Source: Leucoraja ocellata
Taxonomy: Eukaryota
Assembly (NCBI GenBank): GCA_036785375.1
Contig: JAWMAR010000872.1
Coordinates: 124,001-188,000, forward strand
Direction of reading: 5' to 3'
Length of the DNA stretch: 64,000 bases
In this document: piece after piece, positions 59,756 through 61,794 of the stretch
How the letters are laid out: the number at the start of each line of letters is the position of its first letter
Numbering within the stretch: the first letter of the stretch is position 1
Notes under the pieces: model-generated
Told to the model about the DNA's origin: nothing
What the model saw: only the letters and a program-made list of their open reading frames with translations
Databases searched by the model: none
Position numbers and translations under genes: made by a program

Positions 59756-60052
59756 GCTGGATTTGTTCATTTTTGTTCTGTATTTCATGTAACTGAAGCA
59801 AAAAATTAATAACAGTTTTCATATTTTGATTTGATTTACCAACAGAAAGCAGGATTTCTGGGAAGCTGTGTCTTGTGGGGTACGGTGGCATTTGCACTGG
59901 GCCATGACTGTTCATAATCAATATTGATGAGTAGTATTAAGGTATCATGTGTAATAAATCCAAATTTGCTTATGATACCATGTTAGGTGGCATTGTAGAG
60001 GCAAAGGAAATGGGGTTAATGCAGGAATCTTGCACCAGGGTGGAAGGCCACT

Positions 60053-60188
60053 CTTCTTCTTTCGTGTGGCGTGCACAGCCTAAAGTTGTAGGACAACTTG
60101 TTCTATTTGATCTTCCATTTGTGCACGTCGAGTTGATTGCATTAGTCGAAACAGGGCGGACCACGTGAAGGTTGCAATCTTCCACCCC
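60053..60188 (-). mobile_element. 136-bp ribozyme-capped non-autonomous retroposon (Ingi/Vingi-like)
   Basis: Perfect 10-bp TSD gaaggccact (60043-60052 / 60189-60198). The 5' end is ribozyme G1; the 3' end is ccacacgaaagaagaag. No pol III A/B boxes. Confidence 0.88.
60135..60188 (-). ncRNA. HDV-like self-cleaving ribozyme fold (54 nt, minimal P4)
   Basis: GGGGTGG(P1)-AA-GATTGCA(P2)-ACC(P3)-TTCACGT(L3)-GGT(P3')-CCGCCCT(P1')-GTTTCGA-CTAA(J4/2)-TGCAATC(P2'). P1 has 7 bp with the G1-U wobble, P2 7/7, P3 3/3; catalytic C present in a CNAA context. Confidence 0.9.
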
Positions 60189-61794
60189 GAAGGCCACTTG
60201 ATCTCACTCAATTTGGACGTCAAAATACTGTACACATTTTGAGGAGCTTTCTTAAAACCATGCAACCATTCTAAATGTAATCAATCTTTTTGAAAAGTTA
60301 ATTAAAGAGTAAAAACAACACATGCTGAGATAGGCAGAAATAATAAATTCAGGTAAAATCTAATAGCTCAGTCAGCATTATGGAGATGAAGGTAGAGTTG
60401 ATGTTTTAAAGACGTTTTATCATTATTGGGAAAAGATAGATAGGAGAGATAATGGAGAAGAGTGAATAAAACGGGGTGCTTGTGATTGTGTGAAGAGGCT
60501 GGGTGACAAGTAGTTTTGCTGCTGACTAAGGAGGGGTAACGCATTACAACATTTAGGACTCGATACTGAATTCAGCTGCTGCAGATAATCTGTCACTGAC
60601 TTTAATCTCACATTTCCAGCACTCGTTAAATGTTCTGGTACAGGTAATTCTTGGCTTCCATGGTAGAGGTGGGGATGGGGGCTGATGGAGGTAGTGGGGT
60701 GGGGGCTGGTAGGTTGTGGTCCTAGAAAATGGTCCGCATTGTAATTTACCGTGACGCAAACCACAATTCATCGACGAATGTGAGTTGAAGAATATAATTG
60801 ATGTTGATTGATTTATTATTTGTAAATTTTATACTGCATTATAAGATTTTTGGGTGTTGATTTGTGAATTCTGATAGGGTAAATTTCCATTAGCCAAACA
60901 GCCGTACATTTTGGGTTGTCTGGATTTAAGATCTCTTTCATTTGCTACGTGTGCCTGCTGCAACTTTTCTGTTTTATACTAGTTGTGCATATCCTTACGG
61001 TCGGTCCCACTGCATGCCTTACTATACTGCTCCTTATCTACCACAGGCATTTCCGTTTTGTTCTTCCTGCTCCATCCCCACAACATCAATACTCCACCCC
61101 CCCCCCCCCCTCCCATCTGAGATTTTTCTGGAATTTTTAACATATTGAATATCTAATTTCCAATTCCAAGGGCATCGATCTGAAACATTCTCTTTGCTTT
61201 CTTTGTCGATGGTTTCCATGCTTTCTTCTATGCTATTCCCTTCTATGCTATTTCTATGCTTTTTTTTATTTCTAACATTATTTGTTTCCATTAAAGATGT
61301 TTCAGAATTTTCAATATTTTTGTTGCAAATTATTTGTTCTACAGAGCAAAGAGATAAAAGAATCAAATCAGATTATGTGCACAAAGAAGGGATATAAATA
61401 AGCCCCTCATTTGAGTCGCCCTGGCTTATTTTTCTTAAATCATCTTGGCCTGGCAACTTGAGTTAGGACTGCATGGTTCTTTCCCATTTCCCCAATAGTA
61501 TAGGTAGGAATAAAAGATGCACGGGTTCACTGTGAGGCAACACCCATGGTTCGATGTTTTCCAAATGCTGTCTTTACTGAAGATGATTTGTTGTTCTGCA
61601 GAAAATTTAAATTTTATTTTACTGTTTGCATTGTTAGTGGAGTTGTTTTGGGATCTAAATTTGGCGTACTTGTTTAATAATCAAAGTCTTCAGTCAATAA
61701 GCCGACTGCATCTGATGTTCCCAAATGGTTTTCCCTCCACTCTCGCAGTTGCGTTAACTGGGTCATTGAAATGAGTGCATTGATCTTTGTAACA

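Follow-up and report, generated by a model that had tools for sequence, protein, structure and literature searches.

The question raised by this locus is whether a 136-nt element on the minus strand of the window (the whole stretch of 64,000 nucleotides that was analysed) is a mobile element headed by a self-cleaving ribozyme and, if so, which proteins move it. The initial annotation had read it as a promoterless SINE-like element that is capped by an intact minimal HDV-like ribozyme and borrows an Ingi/Vingi-type RT. From the sequence comparisons below, we estimate a probability of about 0.8 for the following reading: the element is a retroposon that is non-coding and present in thousands of copies, starts at the first base of a predicted P4-less HDV-like fold, and would be mobilised in trans by Vingi proteins. 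Its features are collected in Table 1.

Table 1. Features of the element and of its predicted ribozyme fold (positions in the window).
Feature	Position	Strand	Basis
Non-autonomous retroposon, 136 nt, young-subfamily copy	60053–60188	−	genome copies, TSD, alignment
TSD copy adjoining G1	60189–60198	.	direct repeat
TSD copy beyond the tail	60043–60052	.	direct repeat
P4-less HDV-like ribozyme fold, 54 nt; predicted cleavage between 60189 and 60188	60135–60188	−	descriptor, Rfam, alignment
P1 5′ strand (G1–G7), pairs with 60153–60159	60182–60188	−	
P2 5′ strand, pairs with 60135–60141	60173–60179	−	
P3, L3 (UUCACGU) and P3′; contains U20, C22, G25	60160–60172	−	
G37 (P1.1 partner of C22), U38, and UUCGA linker where P4 would be	60146–60152	−	
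J4/2 CUAA; predicted catalytic C44 at 60145, equivalent to C57 of CPEB3	60142–60145	−	
Body, no match in Vingi families A–C; 8-bp stem 60120–60127 with 60070–60077 around an inner hairpin	60069–60134	−	
3′ terminal CACACG motif and (GAA)n tail	60053–60068	−	resembles Vingi-like LINE ends

The Predicted Ribozyme Fold

The helices claimed for the head were confirmed: P1 GGGGUGG/CCGCCCU (positions 1–7 and 30–36, with wobbles G1-U36 and U5-G32), P2 GAUUGCA/UGCAAUC (positions 10–16 and 48–54), P3 ACC/GGU (positions 17–19 and 27–29) with L3 UUCACGU, a single P1.1 pair, C22-G37, and J4/2 CUAA. J1/2 reads AA, and P4 is indeed shrunk to a 7-nt linker, GUUUCGA, between P1′ and J4/2. This nested double pseudoknot of P1, P2, P3 and P1.1 without a P4 helix is that of the minimal HDV-like ribozymes, and the G1-U wobble on a 7-bp P1, U20 and G25 in L3 and the catalytic-C position in J4/2 are those of HDV-like ribozymes in general. 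The J4/2 consensus of HDV-like ribozymes is C-N-R-A; older copies have CGAA or CAAA in place of the CUAA of the window copy. The head is not a theta ribozyme, a type found in phage genomes that cleaves next to the 3′ end of a tRNA: the genome is that of an animal, and the window contains no tRNA.

An HDV-like descriptor, whose L3 was written with the window sequence in view, found one site in the 64-kb window and none in 300 dinucleotide shuffles on both strands. The Rfam check proposed initially succeeded in part: the HDV-F-prausnitzii model (RF02682) was placed exactly on the 54 nt of the head, but with only 16 bits (E 4.4), below the gathering score of 44, and the CPEB3 and HDV models in Rfam gave no match to the head at E ≤ 10. 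It should be noted that an Rfam score gauges likeness to the members of a model and not the fold itself, and that minimum-energy folding (z 0.62) cannot reveal a pseudoknot and was not used as evidence. With the native flank, the P1 pair probability was 0.83–0.86.

Nine heads, three from the short family and two each from the Vingi-like LINE families A, B and C described below, aligned unaided in the same register; the nine were picked for being well formed, and they amount to four lineages instead of nine separate events. In this alignment, 98.8% of cells were paired and 13 of 18 pairs had changed on both sides, P3 and P1.1 included, with none of 500 shuffles as high and only 38–46% of cells paired in the slid controls; C44 and A47 were invariant. 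The HDV-like fold is supported, at the level of sequence, by this covariation across related LINE heads. The covariation that had been expected among copies of the element itself is absent: the helices of the short copies show no compensatory changes, and recurrent changes occur at position 8, at the N of C-N-R-A and at CpG sites.

Copies, Ends and Ages of the Short Family

The genome searched (G000, 3.44 Gb in 5,847 contigs) contains 7,522 exact matches to the 22-nt core, against 0 for the reversed control, and 1,233 to the young 3′ 26-mer, duplicates included in both counts; a whole-element search gave 1,137 candidates, and the 40 that were scored were 95–100% identical. The flanking repeats resemble those known from cartilaginous fishes. 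The multicopy nature of the element, for which a genome-wide search had been proposed, is thus established at thousands of copies, a count that includes haplotype and tandem duplicates: two samples of 30 loci leave 23 and 25 distinct sites once duplicates are merged. At G000:C1:19.26–19.43 Mb and C70:7.08–7.51 Mb, the short element or its 3′ half recurs every 2–5 kb in clusters, and since these sit inside larger tandem duplications, copy counts are inflated. The window locus has a 97.5% identical duplicate (L312, G000:C168:2056900-2058700), in whose copy of the element G3C breaks one P1 pair and the tail is longer.

The 5′ ends were compared in two position-ordered samples of 60 loci, from which 2 without the core and 13 duplicates were dropped. 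G stands at +1 in 40 of the 45 independent sites, as the initial annotation had anticipated, and positions −1 to −6 have mixed bases. Copies running on upstream of G1 had been named initially as grounds for rejecting the ribozyme; in the samples, the upstream sequence is unrelated between copies. Loose ends pile up at 60188 in the contigs of three other runs (277, 241 and 206). The base preceding G1 is a pyrimidine in 33 of the 45 sites, which may reflect a preference of the endonuclease or of the cleavage site.

The perfect 10-bp direct repeat that had been claimed brackets the window copy, although the first two minus-strand bases of the TSD (AG) can be read as tail instead. Among 30 copies, 13 were left unscored for TSDs where the script did not locate the tail; all 17 others had a score of at least 6, compared with 9% of 272 mismatched flank pairs. 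Thirteen of these 17 TSDs abut G1 exactly and four overlap it by one G, and the TSDs of family copies are ~7–13 bp long. The (GAA)n-type tail is present at the end of the element, as described, and reads AAAGAAGAAG in the window copy; the body stem has 8 bp in this copy and 11 bp in older ones. In being non-coding and dispersed, with variable TSDs and a simple-repeat tail, the element corresponds to a bipartite non-autonomous LINE.

Two subfamilies can be distinguished. In the old one, J4/2 is mostly CGAA, the end reads CATACGCAAGAAG, and the median distance from the column majority is 5.9% (13 copies); in the young one, which includes the window copy, the distance is 2.0% (16 copies). The family expanded in two or more waves, at ~6% and ~2% divergence, which overlap in age with the decaying Vingi families A and B (~3%). 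All of these divergences are biased low, the sampled copies having been chosen by exact motifs or best scores.

Vingi-Like LINE Families in the Same Genome

A relaxed tail search led to the 3′ end of a LINE, family A, and APE protein searches gave families B and C. All three families have APE and RT domains. Family A has 6,743 candidates for its C-terminus at ~92% pairwise identity; among the 13 loci examined, full-length copies measure 3.09–3.40 kb, and TSDs are visible in 3 of 4. Family B is 3.0–3.3 kb long where both ends were found, lengths being those of families A and B only. All 11 LINE copies checked for intactness are broken, with a longest open frame of 500 aa, and intact relatives elsewhere have ~1,000 aa with APE and RT and no RNase H domain listed. 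Vingi elements are described in the cited parts of PMC13708176 and PMC5786205 as having a single ORF with APE and RT, no RNase H and a length of ~3.1 kb. Families A–C and their relatives fit Vingi by domain layout and length; none of 77 protein matches bore the Vingi name.

Each of the three families begins with an HDV-like fold and ends in a CA-N-N-CG motif followed by GAA repeats. The short head and the family A head are identical at 16 of 17 nt of the core, with the same fold and position, so that the element has, through family A, the LINE-homologous 5′ end of bipartite elements. When 12 sources were scanned, the HDV-F-prausnitzii model matched two family C heads (E 7e-4 and 1e-3) and one family B head (0.08), and no family A head matched it. 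Family C is tandem-amplified (L225, L230–L237 and many small contigs), with APE fragments ~1.8 kb apart, and one of its paired heads keeps a 67-nt HDV-like fold. A 454-nt, internally deleted copy of family A with both ends and a TSD (L306, G000:C83:6467600-6472400, oriented 364–818) is a plain SIDE-type derivative.

Among Vingi-like elements on metagenome contigs, the fold was found 190–230 nt before the ORF in 6 of 20 and on the reverse strand in none; the 20 are those of 80 loci whose match starts within the first 12 residues, 3 of them had <120 nt upstream, and the background was 3 matches in 395 kb. The six loci are L328, L333, L344, L348, L374 and L383, and decayed versions of the head occur at L336, L337, L367, L394, L397 and L398. 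The exact 21-nt core had no match in the metagenome contigs, and viral contigs yielded no Vingi relative.

The search proposed for an autonomous LINE that closely shares both termini gave none among the matches inspected, which were 100 of 238, 100 of 131 and 100 of 255 listed in searches with negation patterns and the best 150 of 1,223 and best 150 of 1,317 candidates in APE searches, whose lists were flooded by family C. No element with the head or tail of the window copy appeared among them, and families A, B and C were found instead. The old subfamily shares 13–14 terminal nucleotides with family A; the young tail differs from it at two positions, and in a few family A copies the end reads CATACG(A/C)AAGAAG. 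The 70-nt body has no match in families A, B or C. As to the borrowed Ingi/Vingi-type RT, Vingi-type LINEs with matching kinds of head and tail do exist in the same genome, but a close parent was not found among these matches. The CACACG and (GAA)n end, which resembles the ends of the Vingi-like LINEs, is a likely RT recognition and priming site.

RNA Reads and the Insertion Locus

One polyA run, labelled organism D (not the window's own) and read to ~6%, gave 761 reads that match the family in both orientations; 94% continue into unlike sequence and 238 pass G1. No pile-up of 5′ ends was seen at G1 in this run, and nowhere did read starts or ends accumulate to a fifth of the depth. The read strand ratio over the head was ~165:270, in a library whose strand convention is not given, and no reads lay on the flanks of the window locus. 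The run shows family copies embedded uncut in host transcripts and lends no support to cleavage in that tissue. It is compatible with cleavage, because mutations or an antisense orientation affect many of the copies and the products of cutting may go unrecovered.

In contigs of the runs labelled organisms B, C and D, both flanks are joined to the insertion; among the rows listed from these three runs, none skips the element as an empty site would. There is thus no sign of polymorphism, and an insertion common to B, C and D is old enough to be shared; the short family is probably quiescent now. The 26 long frames established no host gene or orientation at the locus (short exons would escape them). 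One of these frames had a HEAT match in Pfam, at 20.6 bits against a cut-off of 27 bits, which was read as noise. At 59767–59808 of the window (minus strand), a weak Rfam match to IRE_I (18 bits, E 0.81, threshold 34) is probably due to chance.

Proposed Mechanism and Alternative Explanations

The element is best read as a non-autonomous LINE derivative of the SIDE/NARTc type. A copy would be transcribed by pol II, with the promoter supplied by the host or by the head itself, a step suggested by the occurrence of the family sequence inside polyA RNA in both orientations. The 54-nt fold is predicted, from homology and covariation, to cleave 5′ of G1 with C44 and Mg2+ and so to remove the flank. 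The shared tails and the TSDs suggest that the Vingi APE/RT protein would then bind the CA(C/T)ACG-(GAA)n end, nick the target and reverse-transcribe the RNA, and the new copy would gain a TSD abutting G1, of the length seen in the family.

An unlikely alternative for the head is that it serves mainly as an internal pol II promoter starting at G1, like Pr77, the inherited Vingi fold cutting weakly or not at all after the loss of P4. Pr77 of L1Tc/NARTc is a promoter as well as a ribozyme (PMC4035085), bipartite LINEs are expected to be transcribed by pol II (Kojima 2018, PMC5786205), and a promoter would agree with polyA reads that do not pile up at G1 and with helices that do not covary within the short family. 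A fold freed from cleavage is harder to reconcile with recurrent head changes that lie mainly at tolerant positions, A8/G8 in J1/2 and the N of C-N-R-A (CUAA, CGAA, CAAA). All ribozyme features are kept in 26 of the 45 sampled copies, a motif-anchored sample that is biased high, though G25C occurs in 2 of 23 sites of one sample, and in vitro activity is known for HDV-like ribozymes that lack P4 (PMC10879173, PMC6326823). The two roles of the head are not exclusive.

It is also conceivable, though rather unlikely, that the head derives from Vingi and the mover is another element, either a Vingi/Ingi family that has been lost or has escaped detection, or a LINE of RTE type whose tail is GAA, by analogy with the hybrid R2/R1 SIDEs (PMC3414825). 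The missing direct parent among the matches inspected, the flooding of the APE lists by family C, the unmatched body and the two differences in the young tail would all be in keeping with this, but the tail motif is found in each of the three Vingi-like families, the ages overlap, and a few family A copies have the CATACG(A/C)AAGAAG end. We consider an ordinary pol III SINE whose 5′ end resembles a ribozyme by chance to be very improbable. The claimed lack of a pol III promoter holds in so far as there is no A-box within 1 mismatch and no tRNA; it is weakened by two B-box look-alikes with 1 mismatch, a count that came without a shuffle control, and the low Rfam score of the head would also suit a chance resemblance. 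Rfam, tRNA and box scans revealed no tRNA-, 5S- or 7SL-type SINE head with pol III boxes, and chance accords poorly with the empty descriptor shuffles, the core in common with the family A head and the covariation across families.

Relation to Known Ribozyme-Headed Elements

The design is already known from R2 SIDEs and from NARTc/RIME/SIDER elements: the heads of R2 SIDEs and R2/R1 hybrid SIDEs self-cleave in vitro (Eickbush and Eickbush 2012, PMC3414825), as do those of NARTco/SIDER2 (PMC4035085). Like the Drosophila R2 SIDEs, which spread in trans by TPRT, the short element is non-coding and has a 5′ HDV-like head and a LINE-type 3′ end; R2 SIDEs are rare, confined to rDNA and dependent on R2/R1 (PMC3414825), whereas the short family is of Vingi type and dispersed in thousands of copies, its head lacks P4, and the matches inspected included no close parent. 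The trypanosomatid NARTc, RIME and SIDER are likewise short derivatives, of the L1Tc/ingi clade, with a 5′ HDV-like head and TSDs of 7–11 nt (PMC4035085). The NARTc type belongs to protists and has a 77-nt Pr77 head with P4, a proven promoter, a poly-A tail and a length of ~0.6 kb in that screen (PMC4035085), in contrast to the 136 nt, 54-nt head and (GAA)n tail found here.

RTE, Ingi, Vingi and R2 are sources of bipartite non-autonomous LINEs (Kojima 2018, PMC5786205). With bipartite Vingi derivatives, such as those of Vingi-1_EE, the element would share dependence on Vingi, a non-coding sequence and LINE-type ends (PMC5786205), but it is no plain internal deletion of families A–C. The nested double pseudoknot without P4 is that of minimal HDV-like and theta ribozymes, nearly 99% of which (the minimal forms) are in tailed phages, with theta forms beside tRNAs (PMC10879173); here it heads an animal retroposon.

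As far as we have searched, two predictions are new: that Vingi elements bear ribozyme heads, and that an animal genome contains a P4-less HDV-like ribozyme in thousands of copies. The cited part of PMC5786205 lists six ribozyme-bearing LINE clades, Vingi not among them, and the literature searched gave no report of Vingi ribozyme heads or of the short family; Repbase and Dfam, outside the scope of this search, may have them. Cleavage by these heads would add Vingi to the LINE clades that bear ribozymes, and the 136-nt element would then illustrate how short an RNA suffices for a Vingi protein; UTRs of Vingi already serve in gene-writing templates (PMC13708176). P4-less HDV-like ribozymes would also move from phages into thousands of sites of an animal genome, where sense-oriented copies in introns or UTRs could cut host RNA.

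Relation to the CPEB3 Ribozyme

The short head has the register of the CPEB3 ribozyme (G1, 7-bp P1, 2-nt J1/2 and 7-bp P2; PMC4836649, PMC8233481), with U20, C22, G25, U36, G37 and U38 in place, an identical L3 UUCACGU, a single C-G P1.1 and, in older copies, CGAA (PMC4836649). It differs in the sequences of P1, P2 and P3 and in having no P4 (54 nt versus 67 nt), and the CPEB3 ribozyme is single-copy and conserved, while the short element is multicopy and mobile. Since L3 UUCACGU recurs in other Vingi-like heads, it marks a clade or a fold, not close descent.

A closer match is seen in the gharial, where, by eye and with distal P4 left aside, 52 of 54 positions at the 5′ end of Vingi-2_Gav are the same as in the mammalian CPEB3 ribozyme. 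The sequences compared were positions 2–74 of Vingi-2_Gav (supplement of PMC5786205) and the elephant CPEB3 ribozyme (supplement of PMC8233481): by eye and in register from G1, 38 of the 40 bases at positions 2–41 are shared, the final 14, which include the catalytic C, are identical, and otherwise the two part only in distal P4. The CPEB3 ribozyme is said not to occur outside mammals, and its deeper ancestry could not be reconstructed according to the cited part of PMC8233481; in the literature searched, we found no paper joining it with Vingi. The near-match makes an origin from a Vingi-type element likely, and at the sequence level suggests that the CPEB3 ribozyme is an exapted Vingi head, which would give this conserved mammalian ribozyme an outgroup and an origin that can be tested. 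We lean, somewhat beyond even odds, towards the combined proposal that Vingi elements are generally ribozyme-headed, that the 54-nt P4-less form of the short family has sown thousands of still-competent sites, and that the CPEB3 ribozyme is a domesticated Vingi head. In the alligator, the body of SINE2-1_AMi carries, by eye, a close copy of the CPEB3 ribozyme, its P4 stem included.
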